DNA of 64,000 nucleotides from Myxococcota bacterium (GTDB taxonomy: Bacteria > Myxococcota_A > UBA9160 > UBA6930), in the NCBI GenBank assembly GCA_965223415.1, contig OZ245002.1:3232001-3296000 (forward strand), written 5' to 3'. The notes beneath the pieces were generated by a model that was given only the letters and a program-made list of their open reading frames with translations, ran no database searches and was not told the origin of the DNA. The position numbers and the translations under genes were made by a program. Of this stretch, positions 3,821 to 44,237 are shown piece after piece (the first letter of the stretch is position 1; the number at the start of each line of letters is the position of its first letter).

Positions 3821-3852
3821 GTGAGACAAGGGGACGTTCCTTTCTGTCTCAT
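3821..3852 (+). repeat. 32-nt REP-like unit (family A), left flank of the RAYT gene
   Basis: GTGAGACA-AGGGGACGTTCCTTTC-TGTCTCAT; matches 44165-44196 at 31 of 32 nt. Confidence 0.9.
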
Positions 3853-3896
3853 GAGTTCGCTAGGATGACGGTTGCCCCGGTCCCGCGGAGTCCCCC

Positions 3897-4696
3897 ATGC
3901 CGCGAACCGCCCGCCGGGACTGGCCCGGGGCGTTCCACCACGTCTGGTCCCGGGGCATCGAACGGCGCTCGATCTTCGTCGACGACGTGGACCGCCGGTT
4001 CTTCGTTGACCAGCTCGAACGCCTCGTTCTCGAGTGCGGAATCCATTGCTATGCGTGGGTGCTGATGCCCAACCACCTGCATCTGGCGTTGCAGGTCGGG
4101 CTGGGCCGTCTCTCCGAGTTCATGGCACGTCTCGGGACCCTCTATGCCGTGTACTTCAACCGGCGCCACCACCGGGTGGGCACCTGTTCCAGAACCGCTT
4201 CAAGTCACGGGTCGTCCTCGATGAGGTCGATCTACGCGGACTCCTTGCCTACATCCATGCGAACCCGCTTCGCGCGGGGATGGTCGGCTCCGAGGAAGGG
4301 CTCGCCTCGTTCGCATGGAGCAGCTACGGCGCCTGGGTCGGCGCACGCGAGCCGCATGCCTTCGAGAGCAGGAGGCGGCTCGCGTCGGTTCTGGACGTCC
4401 GCCCGGGCGACCTCGCATCCGTCCTCCGGGAGGATCTCCTCCGTCCGATGGCGGAGGATCCGCTCTGCGACCGCGCACTCCGGCGCATGCCCTCCGGCGA
4501 CGCTGATGCCCGGGTGCGCGCGGTGCTCGTGGAGCTCGACCTCTCGCCGAGCACGCTCGCGGCGATCCTCGACGATCCTGCGACGCTGCGTCGCCTGTTC
4601 GCGGCCATCGAGGCGAAGGGCCTCCCCTCACGTGCCCTCGCACGGGTGCTCGGGGTGTCCCATGCGACACTCGCCCGGCGCCGTTCGGCCTTGTAG
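3897..4696 (+). pseudogene. REP-associated tyrosine transposase (RAYT/TnpA-REP, HUH-Y1) with C-terminal HTH; one frameshift near 4180
   Basis: First frame: MPRTAR...HHVWSRGIERRSIF...MPNHLHL (HUH)...YFNRRHHRVG. It continues in another frame as HLFQNRFKS...YIHANPLRAG (catalytic Tyr)...ALARVLGVSHATLAR (HTH). One base is missing in GTGGGCAC. Confidence 0.9.
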
Positions 4697-4732
4697 CACC
4701 GGTGCCATGCGACTAGGGTCTGTCCGCGGTGA

Positions 4733-4764
4733 GTGAGACAAAAAGGAGCGTCCCCTTGTCCCAG
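4733..4764 (-). repeat. 32-nt REP-like unit (family A, diverged), right flank of RAYT, inverted
   Basis: GTGAGACAAAAAGGAGCGTCCCCTTGTCCCAG versus GTGAGACAGAAAGGAACGTCCCCTTGTCTCAC at 44206-44237 (4 differences). Confidence 0.85.
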
Positions 4765-5184
4765 ATCGAACGCACCGTCGAGCGTTGGCACGAGGTGATC
4801 TCCGGTGGCCCGGCGGGGTTGGACGACCTGCTGGCCGAGGATGTCGTGTTCTACTCGCCCGTCGTCTTCACGCCGCAGAAGGGCAAGGCGGTCACGAAGC
4901 TCTACCTCGGTGCGGCGGGCAACACGCTGGGCGGAGGCGAGCCCGTCAGCGGTACCGACGGGAGCTCCGGCAAGTTTCGTTACACGAAGGAGATCCTGGC
5001 CGGCAACCAGGCCATGCTCGAGTTCGAGACCGAGATGGACGGCAAGTACGTCAACGGAGTCGACATCATCACCTGCAACGACGAGGGCCGCATCGTCGAG
5101 TTCAAAGTGATGATCCGCCCGCTCCAGGCCATCCAGACCGTCCACGCCCAGATGGCGCGGATGCTCGAGAAGATGAAGAGCTAG
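4756..5184 (+). CDS. SnoaL/NTF2-like family protein
   Basis: LDDLLAEDVVFYSPVVFTPQKGK...LEFETEMDGKYVNGVDII...FKVMIRPL. Start is either TTG 4756 (SD AAGGAG) or GTG 4729. Confidence 0.85.
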   Translation: MSQIERTVERWHEVISGGPAGLDDLLAEDVVFYSPVVFTPQKGKAVTKLYLGAAGNTLGGGEPVSGTDGSSGKFRYTKEILAGNQAMLEFETEMDGKYVNGVDIITCNDEGRIVEFKVMIRPLQAIQTVHAQMARMLEKMKS

Positions 5185-13320: not shown

Positions 13321-14823
13321 TCACCCTCCGACCAGGATCCGCAACGTCAGCGTGTAGACCAGTCCGGTGATGAGCGCGATGCCGATCGCGTTGAGCCACC
13401 AGCCGGCGCGGACCATGTCTTCGATCTGCAGGCGGCCCGAGCCGAAGACCACGGCGTTTGGCGGCGTGGCGACCGGCAGCATGAAGGCGCAGCTGGCGGC
13501 CACCGTGGCGGGCACGACCAGCAGCAGGGGCGGAAGCCCCAGGCCAGGGGCGATGCCCGCCAGGATCGGTACCAGGGTCGCGGTCGTGGCGGTGTTGCTC
13601 GTCACCTCGGTGAGGAAGATCATGCCGGCCACGACAGCGAGCACCAACAGCAGCCGGGGTACCCCCGCGAGCGCCTGGACCTGGTGCCCGAGGTAGGCGC
13701 CGACGCCCTGGTCCTGGATCGCCGCCGCCAGGCTGAGGCCGCCGCCGAAGAGCAGCAGGAGGCCCCAGGGAAGCTGGACCGCCGTGTCCCAGTCCATTAC
13801 CGCGCCTTCGCCCCGGCCGGCCGGCAGCACGAACAGCGCGAGGGCAGCGACGATGGCGATGCCGGGATCGCTCAGGCCCGCCAGGGGGCGCGCGCCGGCG
13901 ATCTCGATTCCGGCCAGCCAGGGGCGGGTGATCCACGCCGCTGCGGCCAGGACGAAGACGGCCAGGGTGAGCCACTCGGCGCTCCGCACCCGTCCGAGCC
14001 CGGCGGCCGCGCGGCGGTAGACCTGCTCGCCGCCGGGGACGTGTCGGATCCGGATCGGGAACACGACGCGGGTGAGCAGCCAGCCGGTGAGCGGGAGGAA
14101 GACCGCCACCAACGGCAGCCCCACGGCCATCCAGCGGGCGAAGCCGATCTCGACGCCCAGCTCCTGGCTCGCGAAAGAGGCCAGGAACAGATTGGGTGGC
14201 GTTCCGATCAGCGTGCCCACGCCGCCGATCGACGCTCCGTAGGCGATGCCGAGGAGAAGCGCGCGGGCGAAGTTCTCCCCATCGGCGGCGTCGCCATCGC
14301 CCTCCGGCCCTGGCTCGCCGACGAGCGCGATGACGCTGACGGCGATGGGCAGCATCATCACCGCCGTCGCCGTGTTCGAGACCCACATGCTGAAGAACGC
14401 GGTCAGGGCCATGAAGCCGCCGACCACGCGGCGCGGCCGGGCGCCCACCCGCCGCAGCACGGCCAGGGCGATGCGCCGGTCGAGCCCCCAGCGCTGCATC
14501 GCCAACGCGAGGACGAAGCCACCCATGAACAGGAAGATCAGGGGATGCGCGTAGGGCGCCGCCGTCTCGCGCAGACCCCGGCCGGTGGCGAGGGGGAGGA
14601 CGGCCAGCGGCAACAGGGCCGTGGCGTAGAGGGGAATCGCTTCGGTCATCCACCACACGGCCATCCAGACCGCCAATCCGGCGGTGACTCGGCCGCCGGG
14701 ACCGAGGGCTGCGAGCTTGTCACCATCCGCGTCGGGAAGCAGCATCGCCACGGCGAGCCCGAGGAGCGGGCCCGCTCCTCGACCGGCCCGCTGCACCCGC
14801 TCACGTCGCTTCGACGGCTCCAT
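13321..14823 (-). CDS. DASS/SLC13 sodium-coupled anion symporter
   Basis: SMWVSNTAT, GTLIGTPPN, TEVTSNTAT and AFMLPVATPPNA motifs. Confidence 0.92.
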   Translation of the reverse strand: MEPSKRRERVQRAGRGAGPLLGLAVAMLLPDADGDKLAALGPGGRVTAGLAVWMAVWWMTEAIPLYATALLPLAVLPLATGRGLRETAAPYAHPLIFLFMGGFVLALAMQRWGLDRRIALAVLRRVGARPRRVVGGFMALTAFFSMWVSNTATAVMMLPIAVSVIALVGEPGPEGDGDAADGENFARALLLGIAYGASIGGVGTLIGTPPNLFLASFASQELGVEIGFARWMAVGLPLVAVFLPLTGWLLTRVVFPIRIRHVPGGEQVYRRAAAGLGRVRSAEWLTLAVFVLAAAAWITRPWLAGIEIAGARPLAGLSDPGIAIVAALALFVLPAGRGEGAVMDWDTAVQLPWGLLLLFGGGLSLAAAIQDQGVGAYLGHQVQALAGVPRLLLVLAVVAGMIFLTEVTSNTATTATLVPILAGIAPGLGLPPLLLVVPATVAASCAFMLPVATPPNAVVFGSGRLQIEDMVRAGWWLNAIGIALITGLVYTLTLRILVGG

Positions 14824-15467: not shown

Positions 15468-15542
15468 CGCAAGAGTGGGGACGTTCCTTGCATCTTGCGC
15501 TCTCGAAGAGCGCAAGATGCAAGGAACGTCCCCACTCTTGCG
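15468..15542. repeat. Perfect 75-nt palindrome: inverted doublet of 32-nt REP-like units (family B)
   Basis: CGCAAGAGTGGGGACGTTCCTTGCATCTTGCG-CTCTCGAAGAG-CGCAAGATGCAAGGAACGTCCCCACTCTTGCG; 36-bp stem, 3-nt loop. Confidence 0.92.
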
Positions 15543-34585: not shown

Positions 34586-34752
34586 GGTCGATCGGGTCCT
34601 GGGAGGGGTGCGGGGCTTGGGTCTGGCTGGGATGGGGGCGCGTTGGGTGTCTCGCGGCTTCCTCCGCTCGCGCGTCGCAGCTGCGAAACACCCCGAACGC
34701 GCCCCCATCCCAACCGAACCCAAACTCGCATCACCCCACCGCCCGATCGACC
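34586..34752. repeat. Decayed ~167-nt inverted-repeat (hairpin) element
   Basis: GGTCGATCGGG...TGGGATGGGGGCGCGTT pairs with AACGCGCCCCCATCCCA...CCCGATCGACC; most mismatches are transitions. Confidence 0.75.
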
Positions 34753-42440: not shown

Positions 42441-44168
42441 GTGGGCTACGACCTGGTCATTCGAGGTGGCACGGTGGTGGACGGCACGGGGCTGGCCCGG
42501 CGCCGCGCAGACGTGGCGGTGTCCGCCGGGCGCATTGCCGCGGTCGGCCACTTGCCCGGCGGCGCCGGGGACGCTCGGGTGATCGATGCGGGCGGCTGCA
42601 TCGTCGCCCCGGGCATCATCGACCTCCACACCCACTACGACCCGCAGCTCACCTTCGATCCCTGGGCCACCTGCTCCTGCTACCACGGCGTGACCTCGGT
42701 CCTGGCCGGCAACTGCGGCTTCTCGATCGCCCCCACCCGCCCGGAAGGCCGCGACTACATCAAGGCGATGTTCGCCAAGGTCGAAGGCATGGCCCCGGTC
42801 GCGCTGGACGGCGTGCGGTGGGACTTCGAGAGCTTCCCGGAGTACCTGGCGGCGCGCCGTGGCCGGCTCGGCGTGAACCTGGCCTGCTACGTCGGCCATT
42901 CGACCCTGCGCCGTTTCGTCATGGGCGCCGACGGGTCGCAGCGGGGGGCGAGCACGGAGGAGGTGGCCCAGATGGCGGCCCTGGTCCGCGAGGCGATCGC
43001 CGCTGGAGCCGCCGGCTTCTCGTCCTCCGACGTGCCGACCCAGGTGGACGGTGACGAGCGGCCCATCCCCAGCCGCTTCGCGGCGAAGGAGGAGCTGAAG
43101 GCGTTGGTCGAGGCGGCCGGTCGGGCCGGGGCGGGCAGCATCGCTTACCTGCCGGAGAGCGTCATCGGCGGTCTCGACGCCGAGGACGAGGATCTCCTGA
43201 TCGAGCTGGGCCGACTCGCCCGCGCACCCATCGTGATCCAGGGCGTGGGCGGGCGCGACAAGGTCGACGCCCCCACCGCCGGCTGGGACCACGCCAAGGC
43301 GTTCCTGGATGCGGCGGCCCGGCGCGGCGCCGCCCTCTTCTCCATCCTGCGCACCCACCCCTTCGACCGGCCCATCGACCTGGCCGCAGGCTGCCCGCTC
43401 TACGCGGGCGTCTTCCCCTGGGCCGAGATCATGGACCTCCCGCACGAGGAGAAGCTCGCTCGGCTCCGCGATCCCGCCCAGCGCGAGCGCATGCGATACG
43501 CCGTCGAGCACCCGAACCGCGATCCGCAGGCCGGCTCGACGCTGCCGCCTCCCCATTGGGACGTCACCTTCGTCGAGGAGGTGCGCGACGCCGTCCACGA
43601 GCCGCTCGTCGGCCGCACGATCGCGGACCTAGCTGCCGAGCGGGGCGAAGCGCCCGCCGACGTGCTCCTCGACCTGGCCCTCACCGAGGACCTGGAGACG
43701 AAGTTCCGCTGGCAGAACCGCACGGGGGCGTGGGCCGAAGCCGTGCGCGAGAGCATGAAACACCCCTCGATGTTGATGGGCATCTCCGACGGCGGCGCGC
43801 ATCTCGACCGGGACGACGGCAGCGACTGGTCGAGCTTCTTCCTGCGCCACTGGGTGCTCGATCGGGGGGAGTGGACCCTCGAGGAAGGCGTCCGCCAGCT
43901 GACCCAGGTACCGGCAGCGCTCGCGGGCTTCGCCGACCGCGGCGTCGTGATGCCCGGCTTCGCCGCCGACCTGATGATCTTCGACCCGGAGACGATCGGG
44001 CCCGGCACCAAGCGCCTGGAGCACGACCTGCCCGGCGGCCAGGGCCGCTTCTGCGCGCGTCCGCGGGGCCTGCGCGCCACGATCGTGAACGGAGAGTCCA
44101 TCGTCCTCGAAGGCAAGCTCACCGGCGCCCTGCCCGGGCAGCTGCTGGCGCCCCACGGCGGATCGTGA
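42441..44168 (+). CDS. N-acyl-D-amino-acid deacylase family amidohydrolase
   Basis: YDLVIRGGTVVDGTG, PGIIDLHTHYD, GNCGFSIAP, SDGGAH. Confidence 0.9.
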   Translation: MGYDLVIRGGTVVDGTGLARRRADVAVSAGRIAAVGHLPGGAGDARVIDAGGCIVAPGIIDLHTHYDPQLTFDPWATCSCYHGVTSVLAGNCGFSIAPTRPEGRDYIKAMFAKVEGMAPVALDGVRWDFESFPEYLAARRGRLGVNLACYVGHSTLRRFVMGADGSQRGASTEEVAQMAALVREAIAAGAAGFSSSDVPTQVDGDERPIPSRFAAKEELKALVEAAGRAGAGSIAYLPESVIGGLDAEDEDLLIELGRLARAPIVIQGVGGRDKVDAPTAGWDHAKAFLDAAARRGAALFSILRTHPFDRPIDLAAGCPLYAGVFPWAEIMDLPHEEKLARLRDPAQRERMRYAVEHPNRDPQAGSTLPPPHWDVTFVEEVRDAVHEPLVGRTIADLAAERGEAPADVLLDLALTEDLETKFRWQNRTGAWAEAVRESMKHPSMLMGISDGGAHLDRDDGSDWSSFFLRHWVLDRGEWTLEEGVRQLTQVPAALAGFADRGVVMPGFAADLMIFDPETIGPGTKRLEHDLPGGQGRFCARPRGLRATIVNGESIVLEGKLTGALPGQLLAPHGGS

Positions 44169-44237
44169 GACAAGGGGACGTTCCTTTCTGTCTCACGGCT
44201 TCGCCGTGAGACAGAAAGGAACGTCCCCTTGTCTCAC
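44165..44237. repeat. Perfect 73-nt palindrome: inverted doublet of family A REP units between convergent genes
   Basis: GTGAGACAAGGGGACGTTCCTTTCTGTCTCAC-GGCTTCGCC-GTGAGACAGAAAGGAACGTCCCCTTGTCTCAC; 35-bp stem. Confidence 0.95.

Follow-up and report, generated by a model that had tools for sequence, protein, structure and literature searches.

The stretch of DNA analysed here (the window) comprises 64,000 nt, positions 3232001-3296000 of contig C1 of G000, the single-contig genome of an uncultured Myxococcota lineage (5.83 Mb, 71% G+C). Close to its left end lies R1, a frameshifted gene for a transposase of the Y1-HUH type, bounded by two copies of a 32-nt repeat unit, GTGAGACA-AGGGGACGTTCCTTTC-TGTCTCAC, which we call class A. 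An initial annotation, made from the letters alone, had described a Y1-HUH gene between inward-facing 32-nt units, and this description holds: the two flanking units are inverted and face inwards, and they agree with the class A consensus at 31/32 and 28/32 positions. In window coordinates, the locus is composed as follows.

3821-3852, plus strand: left terminal inverted repeat (class A), GTGAGACAAGGGGACGTTCCTTTCTGTCTCAt; 31/32 against the consensus, with T as the last stem base; 44 nt 5' of the ATG.
3875-3890, plus strand: upstream motif CCCCGGTCCCGCGGAG, containing a ribosome-binding site, GGAG, at 7 nt from the ATG.
3897-4184, plus strand: N-terminal frame of R1 from the ATG at 3897, carrying the Y1-HUH domain up to the frameshift, with HUH motif NHLHL; matched by Pfam Y1_Tnp, and finds the paralogues by tblastn.
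4184-4190, plus strand: frameshift point, with one base fewer than the paralogues R2-R4 in the alignment; no indel in contigs.
4190-4696, plus strand: C-terminal frame of R1, with the catalytic-Tyr helix (LLAYIHANP), a linker and a C-terminal helix-turn-helix (HTH); stop codon at 4694-4696.
4733-4764, minus strand: right terminal inverted repeat (class A, degenerate); its reverse complement matches at 28/32, with four differences; 36 nt 3' of the stop codon.
4743-4758, plus strand: AAGGAG (4743-4748) and TTG (4756-4758) inside the right repeat, likely the ribosome-binding site and start of the downstream gene.

When R1 is compared to its paralogues, the missing base falls within the codon for the H or Y of an 'RVG[HY]' motif. 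Logan contigs of four sequencing runs cover positions 3822-5045 with 0 differences and no indel; the runs represent at most two samples from one study and may include the source sample, so they are independent of the assembly and not of the organism. The frameshift is therefore not an assembly error, and is real in the sequenced population. The contigs break at 3822-3850, as expected for a repeat. Many further 'joints' seen in them were not taken as rearrangements, because their sides are merely 20-28 letters long and the data are metagenomic.

The same unit also occurs away from the gene. A perfect doublet at 44165-44237, in the orientation of the gene flanks, had been pointed out in the initial annotation and is confirmed, but a second doublet in the window, at 15468-15542, had been overlooked.

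44165-44237, no strand assigned: class A doublet and perfect palindrome, its two arms of 35 nt being 100% complementary and 3 nt apart; + then - polarity.
15468-15542, no strand assigned: class B doublet, with a GGGGACGTTCC core in a CGCAAG/CTTGCG stem and 36-nt perfect arms; this is the class of the intact paralogue R2, 2.4 Mb away.

Allowing up to two mismatches, GGGGACGTTCCTT is found seven times in the window against an expectation of 1.57, a count that 0/100 shuffles reached. The 11-nt core has 165 exact copies in the genome (50 in class A, 101 in class B and 14 elsewhere), compared to 0 in the reversed genome.

These repeats belong to a larger set. Searching by tblastn with the two halves of R1, we see that the genome holds four paralogous Y1 genes, R1 and three intact ones, each flanked by its own class of inverted repeat. 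The intact genes, in genome coordinates, are listed here.

859166-859990, plus strand: R2, 274 amino acids; class B repeats.
3528888-3528070, minus strand: R3, 273 amino acids; class C repeats (GTTGCGTTAGGGGCCGGTTCCGTTTGTTGC).
About 1715028-1714165, minus strand: R4, 288 amino acids from its ATG; class D repeats (AAGAAACGGGGCCAGAGTyWAGAATTCAGTT).

Units were counted by a Hamming scan allowing up to seven mismatches. This census gave 84 units of class A, 102 of class B, 92 of class C and 93 of class D, compared to 0, 1, 0 and 0 in the reversed genome, so the genome does contain the further copies that the initial annotation had proposed looking for; 369 units are left once overlaps are removed, class C then counting 90. 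Taking units no more than 150 nt apart as one cluster, class A consists of 40 '+ -' doublets and four solo units (two of them the R1 flanks), class B of 44 '+ -' doublets and 14 solo units (two of them the R2 flanks), and class D of 44 '+ -' doublets and five solo units. Class C is composed of 64 solo units, seven '+ -' doublets and six tandem pairs. No '- +' doublet was found in any of the four classes genome-wide, meaning that the polarity is exactly that of the left and right repeats around the genes. The earlier suggestion, drawn from one example, that the doublet resembles the gene locus in the polarity of its repeats is upheld by the 40, 44 and 44 doublets of classes A, B and D, and so many inverted pairs with a short spacer, linked to a flanked Y1 gene, fit the organisation of REPINs.

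Doublets are near-perfect palindromes, their spacers included. The two arms of one doublet differ by 0.93-1.02 mismatches, compared to 2.18-2.54 between doublets, and nearly all doublets are distinct in sequence (37/40 in class A, 42/44 in class B and 43/44 in class D). The spacer variants GGCAAAGCC, GGCGAAGCC and GGCAGCGCC differ at their central three bases only, and these three bases would be the loop of one long hairpin.

Overall, we hold it to be very probable that the locus is a TIRtron, its R1 gene being a frameshifted Y1-HUH gene of the TIRYT type, and that the scattered doublets are its REPIN-like non-autonomous derivatives. The bracketing by terminal inverted repeats that defines TIRtrons is seen for 4/4 paralogues and at 16/20 loci in relatives. 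These 20 homologue loci were drawn from 31 related genomes, 13 of which had a match.

The protein sequences are in keeping with this assignment. The N-terminal part of R1 matches Pfam Y1_Tnp (PF01797) with 27.3 bits (cut-off 23), and R2-R4 do so with 31-37 bits. H60, H62 and Y119 are invariant across 18 aligned homologues, the Tyr lying in a 'Y..RNP' helix, and R1 retains both NHLHL and AYIHANP. The C-terminal HTH of the initial annotation is found above threshold in R2, where HTH_23 scores 31.2 bits (cut-off 24.6), but all HTH matches in the C-terminal part of R1 itself are under the cut-off; R3 shows weaker HTH_23 and Bac_DnaA_C matches. A profile built from the 18 homologues matched DnaA domain IV (2z4r, E 5e-4) with its C-terminal 80 residues and E. 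coli TnpAREP (4er8, E 1.3e-3) with its catalytic part; a single-sequence phmmer search with R2 against PDB chains gave weak HTH matches only. For an AlphaFold model of R2 with a mean pLDDT of 89.7, the closest solved structure is again 4er8_A (E 5e-6, TM 0.72 on the target), and the next closest are the TnpA proteins of ISDra2, IS200 and IS608.

The label RAYT, which the gene had been given at the outset, did not survive in its classical sense. Against the NCBIfam model REP_Tyr_transpos (NF047646), with a cut-off of 80, R2-R4 score 57.8-61.0 bits and the two parts of R1 35.4 and 25.1 bits. A classical RAYT was rejected on this ground, and also due to the extra HTH, which classical RAYTs do not have, and the lack of a GT(A/G)G head in the repeat units. 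By predicted architecture and modelled fold, the protein is a RAYT-like Y1 domain with a DnaA-domain-IV-like HTH, placing it in TnpA_REP subclass 2.1, the TIRYT type; this subclass was called by architecture, and our tree comprises the homologues gathered in this analysis. In its available parts, the paper by Quentin et al. 2018 (PMC6006769) describes subclass 2.1 as Y1 proteins that are long and whose C-terminal extension is similar to Bac_DnaA_C, HTH_23 or HTH_28, and equates them with TIRYTs.

A feature common to all four classes is a GGGG box that begins 10-12 nt from the outer end of the unit. The units themselves start with GTGAG (A), CGCAAG (B), GTTGCG (C) and AAGAAAC (D); the initial annotation was thus right that a GTAG-type head is absent, and this differs from the REPs examined by Nunvar 2010, for all of which the available text describes a GT(A/G)G head. 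Compared to the TIRtron motif GGGGWSAS, taken from the text of the paper by Di Nocera, De Gregorio & Rocco 2013 (PMC3733652), the class A/B box GGGGACGT matches at 6/8 positions, the class D box GGGGCCAG at 7/8 and the class C box GGGGCCGG at 6/8. The box is also the best-conserved part of the units. The 84 class A units have a single change across GGGACGTTC, and the 102 class B units have two across 15 positions of the core.

The box is not confined to this genome. The pattern GGGG[ACT]C[GA] lies in the best gene-flanking inverted repeat at 16/20 homologue loci, and GGGGTCA and GGGGACAC variants also occur beside homologues. The nearest relatives among named genomes are metagenome-assembled genomes of uncultured Myxococcota or 'Deltaproteobacteria', followed by Desulfobacterales and Geomonas. 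A first pass over named genomes found a flanking inverted repeat of at least 10 nt at 66/75 usable loci, with an exact GGGG in 35/66; a recount gave an inverted repeat at 62/70 loci, with a GGGAC or GGGGNC box in 46/62. In Myxococcota, Desulfobacterales and Geobacterales alike, homologues have this box next to them, and in most cases no hairpin accompanies it. Among the metagenome relatives of R1, none of which exceeds 57% identity, GGGACG, GGGGACG or GGGGTCA stands 55-60 nt before the ATG. A regular-expression count of boxes in upstream regions (89/96 loci) was discarded as evidence because the pattern was too permissive, and boxes within inverted repeats were used instead.

The initial annotation had set this core in a 16-nt loop closed by a stem, and had proposed a REP/REPIN system whose recognition element is encoded in that loop. 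One part of this stands: units of classes A and B have a lower folding energy than shuffled sequences, at -7.2 and -7.6 kcal/mol (z of -3.3 and -2.9, respectively). The supposed loop, however, is itself partly paired when folded with DNA parameters, forming a GGGA/TCCT mini-stem with a 3-5 nt tip. Units of classes C and D do not fold (0 and -0.1 kcal/mol), and only 1/89 box regions beside homologues reached z <= -2 against shuffles. The REPIN-like spread and the strong conservation of the core are likewise as proposed; the box, in contrast, is not a property of stem-loop REPs. Recognition encoded in a loop was not borne out, because the box lies in terminal repeats across several phyla, and mostly has no hairpin there.

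These data bear directly on the possibility of a classical REP/RAYT system, in which the REP is a stem-loop, the transposase reads the loop, and the hairpin is essential, as it is for E. coli TnpAREP and IS608 TnpA. The folding of class A and B units would agree with such a system. So would a comparison of the two classes, as their stems differ at 6/7 pairs, on both sides, and each is still complementary around a common core. The closest solved structure is also a TnpAREP, which Messing and colleagues reportedly described in 2012 in complex with its REP hairpin. Against these points, classes C and D do not fold, nearly all homologue boxes fall short of z <= -2, the heads and the extra HTH do not fit, the NCBIfam scores fall short, and within a class there are no compensatory changes. 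The stems show uncompensated breaks (13/84 at the outermost class A pair; 16/102 and 12/102 at two class B pairs), and 0-2 cells per pair are changed on both sides, which are too few for a covariation test of the stem within a class. We consequently judge a classical system unlikely. That the A and B stems differ at 6/7 pairs yet stay complementary suggests that this lineage favours a local hairpin, but does not amount to evidence for recognition.

A second motif stands closer to the gene. CCCCGGTCCCG(n)GGAG is present 10-25 nt 5' of the start codon in 4/4 paralogues and in most homologues from relatives, where the proteins behind it are only 40-60% identical, and may represent an internal operator or a piece of the left end of the element. 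Its reverse complement, CGGGACCGG, is similar to the terminal-repeat box. In AT-rich homologues, the box itself keeps a fixed distance of 58-60 nt to the ATG and is followed closely by promoter-like sequence.

To place the doublets relative to genes, coding strands were called by codon-position G+C over the flanking 150 nt. Convergent genes flank 18/40 doublets of class A, 25/44 of class B and 26/44 of class D, compared to 75/2000 random places, and divergent genes flank one doublet of class A and none of B and D. For 25 class A doublets the upstream gene could be called. Its stop codon begins between -5 and +1 relative to the element in 20/25, and is a TGA inside the element, at +20, in the remaining 5/25. 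In class B, the stop codon stands 4-20 nt outside the element in 33/33 doublets, and in class D it mostly overlaps the element end. The window doublet at 44165-44237 fills the entire stop-to-stop gap of two convergent genes and overlaps both stop codons. When the flanks of all 369 units were listed, no single tetranucleotide or target motif was seen, only a frequent TAG or TGA. A test for lagging-strand bias gave a cumulative GC skew with no usable origin/terminus pattern, and 29 + and 28 - solo units in one 'replichore'.

This positioning at gene 3' ends, abutting stop codons, could also be explained if the palindromes were host sites, either hairpin terminators or operators for an HTH protein, that arose and spread without transposition, with the box serving as an operator through which the HTH protein controls its own gene. 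The box 5' of promoter-like sequence in AT-rich homologues, and a box-like motif before the start codon, would agree with this. We nevertheless find it very improbable, as four unrelated arm sequences are each tied to their own Y1 gene, the repeat families are species-specific, insertions are present or absent at otherwise conserved junctions, and no T tract follows the units in the window doublet sequences. A search of the 64-kb window against Rfam gave 0 matches at gathering score.

The initial annotation had further proposed looking for empty orthologous sites, and these exist both for the R1 element and for a class A doublet. The neighbours of R1 on either side are about 83 nt apart in the congeners G003 and G004, compared to 971 nt in G000, with neither R1 nor the repeats between them; in G001 the site is rearranged. 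Within the right repeat of R1, the AAGGAG is followed after a 7-nt gap by the TTG, in frame with a downstream open reading frame (ORF) that is SnoaL-like. In G003 and G004, the orthologue of this gene starts at an ATG of its own, with its own GAGGAGG, and it seems that the degenerate right repeat of R1 was taken over as the translation start of the downstream gene.

The class A doublet at genome positions 431177-431254 lies within a co-directional gene pair and starts directly after a TAG. Empty sites are seen in G001, G002 and G005, where the stop-to-start spacer is 8-17 nt, compared to 110 nt in G000. At the convergent junction that holds the class B doublet 251796-251865, the spacer of G005 is 26 nt, and G003 (G003:C148) and G004 (G004:C25) carry a long perfect doublet of their own class. 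Its arms are about 46 nt long (GCGGGGACGTTCTTTCCGCAGTTTCCGTTACG...), and this sequence is the repeat that flanks the R2 orthologue of G003 and G004. From sequence comparison, this junction would be either a hot spot or an old insertion with turned-over arms. The two window doublets gave no clean empty site in congeners, one flank being conserved without the doublet and the other non-syntenic. In G005, the orthologue of the gene preceding the window class A doublet has a class-D-like unit beside its stop, where the contig (G005:C483) ends; the same gene end thus carries a different repeat class in this sister species than in G000.

Across 30 relatives of 68-99% completeness, class A (up to two mismatches) has 0 matches, compared to 80 in G000, and class B one marginal match (in G029), compared to 96 in G000. 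The class A unit pattern also has 0 matches in a metagenome contig collection, from which near-identical records were possibly left out.

A maximum-likelihood tree with 36 rows puts R2, R3 and R4 into separate groups, each together with orthologues from congeners (support 94/90, 100/98 and 100/99). In G003 and G004, the gene preceding the R2 orthologue is the same one that precedes R2 in G000, which points to vertical inheritance. R1 could not be placed, its branch being 1.92 long compared to a median of 0.39. None of the 30 relatives holds an orthologue of R1, and its relatives in the metagenome collection reach 57% identity at most. Its sequence history suggests that R1 probably entered the lineage as a unit and was broken afterwards.

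Such an arrival would also be expected if this were a conventional selfish insertion sequence of the IS200/IS605 type, accompanied by its miniature inverted-repeat transposable elements (MITEs). The whole element, gene included, would then jump and pass horizontally between genomes, and no part of it would be domesticated or persist for long in the host. The absence of R1 from the orthologous site in two congeners, and its lack of orthologues or close metagenome relatives, would suit that picture. We think it improbable nonetheless. There is a single gene copy per class, where several near-identical full-length copies were not found, and the congener orthologues of R2-R4, with the synteny of R2, argue for vertical descent. 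IS608 ends are same-strand subterminal hairpins; the ends described here are inverted repeats.

The reading that we prefer remains that of a TIRtron with REPIN-like derivatives. Beyond the anatomy, copy number, polarity, palindromy, position and between-species presence or absence observed for the repeats, and the fold and domain content of the protein, we propose the following mechanism. The R1 gene, bounded by 32-nt terminal inverted repeats, would have been inactivated by its one-base frameshift. A doublet would be an element from which the cargo was deleted, leaving the left repeat, a spacer of 3-33 nt and the right repeat. Such doublets would play the part that REPINs or MITEs play elsewhere, being copied in trans by a TIRYT-type transposase whose Y1 domain is predicted to perform single-strand cleavage and joining. 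The box GGGACGTTC, about 10 nt from the outer end, is the presumed family-wide recognition element of the protein, and the surrounding 6-8 bp stem would be a lineage-specific addition in classes A and B. Doublets would persist as whole-length hairpins directly after stop codons, where they would be tolerated and possibly form hairpins at mRNA 3' ends.

The fate of class A after the break in R1 deserves attention, as its units are no more decayed than those of class B (65/84 and 85/102 at no more than one mismatch, respectively). Since the class B repeats of R2 share the core, we infer R2 to be a candidate mover of class A after R1 was broken. A more tentative extension, which we would not expect to hold, is that the HTH reads the GGGACG box in the duplex or doublet stem and so places the Y1 domain at the ends, that specificity resides in the box and not in the arms, and that R2 could thereby replicate class A. 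If so, the genome would be a natural cross-mobilisation experiment, with 84 orphaned class A units served by R2. As part of this tentative extension, there may also be a preference for insertion immediately 3' of stop codons; if true, this would be a target rule undescribed for REPINs.

Several points weigh against the TIRtron interpretation and the mechanism built on it. The class A/B box departs from the published GGGGWSAS at 2/8 positions. As the box lies just 5' of promoter-like sequence in AT-rich homologues, it could be an operator, in addition to or in place of a transposition site. The evidence for mobility is comparative only, between species that are about 75-80% identical in DNA, and shows gain or loss, not an event; no transposition event, excision product or cleavage was observed, the run data being contigs, which cannot show excision. 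Abutment to stop codons may be partly forced by very short intergenic spacers rather than reflecting a choice of target, because the spacers in relatives are as short as 8-17 nt. That R1 is broken and class A no more decayed than class B would mean that either the frameshift is recent or another enzyme serves class A. Finally, according to the available parts of their paper, Quentin, Siguier, Chandler & Fichant 2018 (PMC6006769) did not find any REP-like sequence in the vicinity of genes of subclass 2.1.

Comparison to known systems helps to place these elements; for the literature cited, we refer to the portions of each paper that were available. TIRtrons and TIRYTs, as described by Di Nocera, De Gregorio & Rocco 2013 (PMC3733652), share with the present system a RAYT-like Y1 gene between terminal inverted repeats, a GGGG-box near the outer end, repeats that can be dispersed as singles, dimers or groups, and the presence of several genes per genome with their own repeats, as in S. 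maltophilia and Koribacter versatilis. They differ in the box, which is GGGGACGT or GGGGCCRG here and GGGGWSAS in the published motif. What sets the present case apart is also an uncultured Myxococcota host with four parallel systems and about 370 units, two classes that have one box in different hairpins, and a master gene that is frameshifted. With subclass 2.1 (PMC6006769) there is the likeness of a long Y1 protein with a C-terminal HTH extension, but here each gene has abundant cognate repeats.

The REPIN-RAYT systems of Pseudomonas and Enterobacteria (Bertels & Rainey 2011; PMC5581495) likewise have a single-copy Y1 gene flanked by its own repeat, inverted doublets that are the replicating unit and are kept as hairpins, several gene/repeat pairs per genome, and vertical inheritance of the genes, as seen here for R2-R4. 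In contrast to them, our units have no GTAG/GTGG head, two of the four classes lack a unit-level hairpin, and the protein belongs to another subclass, with an HTH. In the portions of Bertels et al. 2017 (PMC5581495) that were available, REPs are tied to Groups 2 and 3 of that study only. E. coli TnpAREP (4er8) provides the closest solved fold for the catalytic domain, with HUH and catalytic Tyr conserved, but the E. coli protein is 17% identical in sequence, lacks an HTH and has a GTAG-tagged hairpin as its substrate.

In short, this is a REPIN-like system of the known TIRtron/TIRYT kind, unusually clear, and not a new kind of element. TIRYTs (subclass 2.1) are the second largest TnpA_REP subclass (Quentin 2018, PMC6006769), and the literature on them is sparse, with no biochemistry found in the parts available. 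The present complete genome has four TIRYT genes, each with a repeat population of REPIN size that is clearly separated by class. The abundant cognate repeats contrast with the statement that subclass 2.1 lacks REP-like sequences, at least as it reads in the available text (PMC6006769). One core in two hairpins, together with the death of one of two master genes, makes good material for testing recognition by the enzyme. For annotation, about 370 short gene-end palindromes are explained, some of which supply or overlap stop codons, and one of which is a candidate for supplying a ribosome-binding site and start.

The genome contains further related sequences. A total of eight sequences match Y1_Tnp. 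Four are the TIRYT genes, one is an IS200-like TnpA (140.7 bits), and the remaining three are copies of a different Y1-like ORF.

5490161-5490679; 4075206-4076090; 5825453-5826337; 13429-14115 (G000:C1): the IS200-like TnpA and the three copies of the other Y1-like ORF.

These three copies share a HYSIQGDHVHLIVEA motif, and 2/3 look disrupted or truncated. A fifth small repeat family, GGGGACGyTCCTGAACGCAAC, has about a dozen copies in the genome, and at G000:C1:779800-781700 an IS5-like element of 1.3 kb, encoding a DDE transposase, interrupts one of its doublets, a REP-like palindrome. Within the window, positions 34617-34723 hold one more inverted repeat (TTGGGTCTGGCTGGGATGGGGGCGCG...), which lies outside all four classes and has 34-nt arms that are 85% complementary and 39 nt apart.

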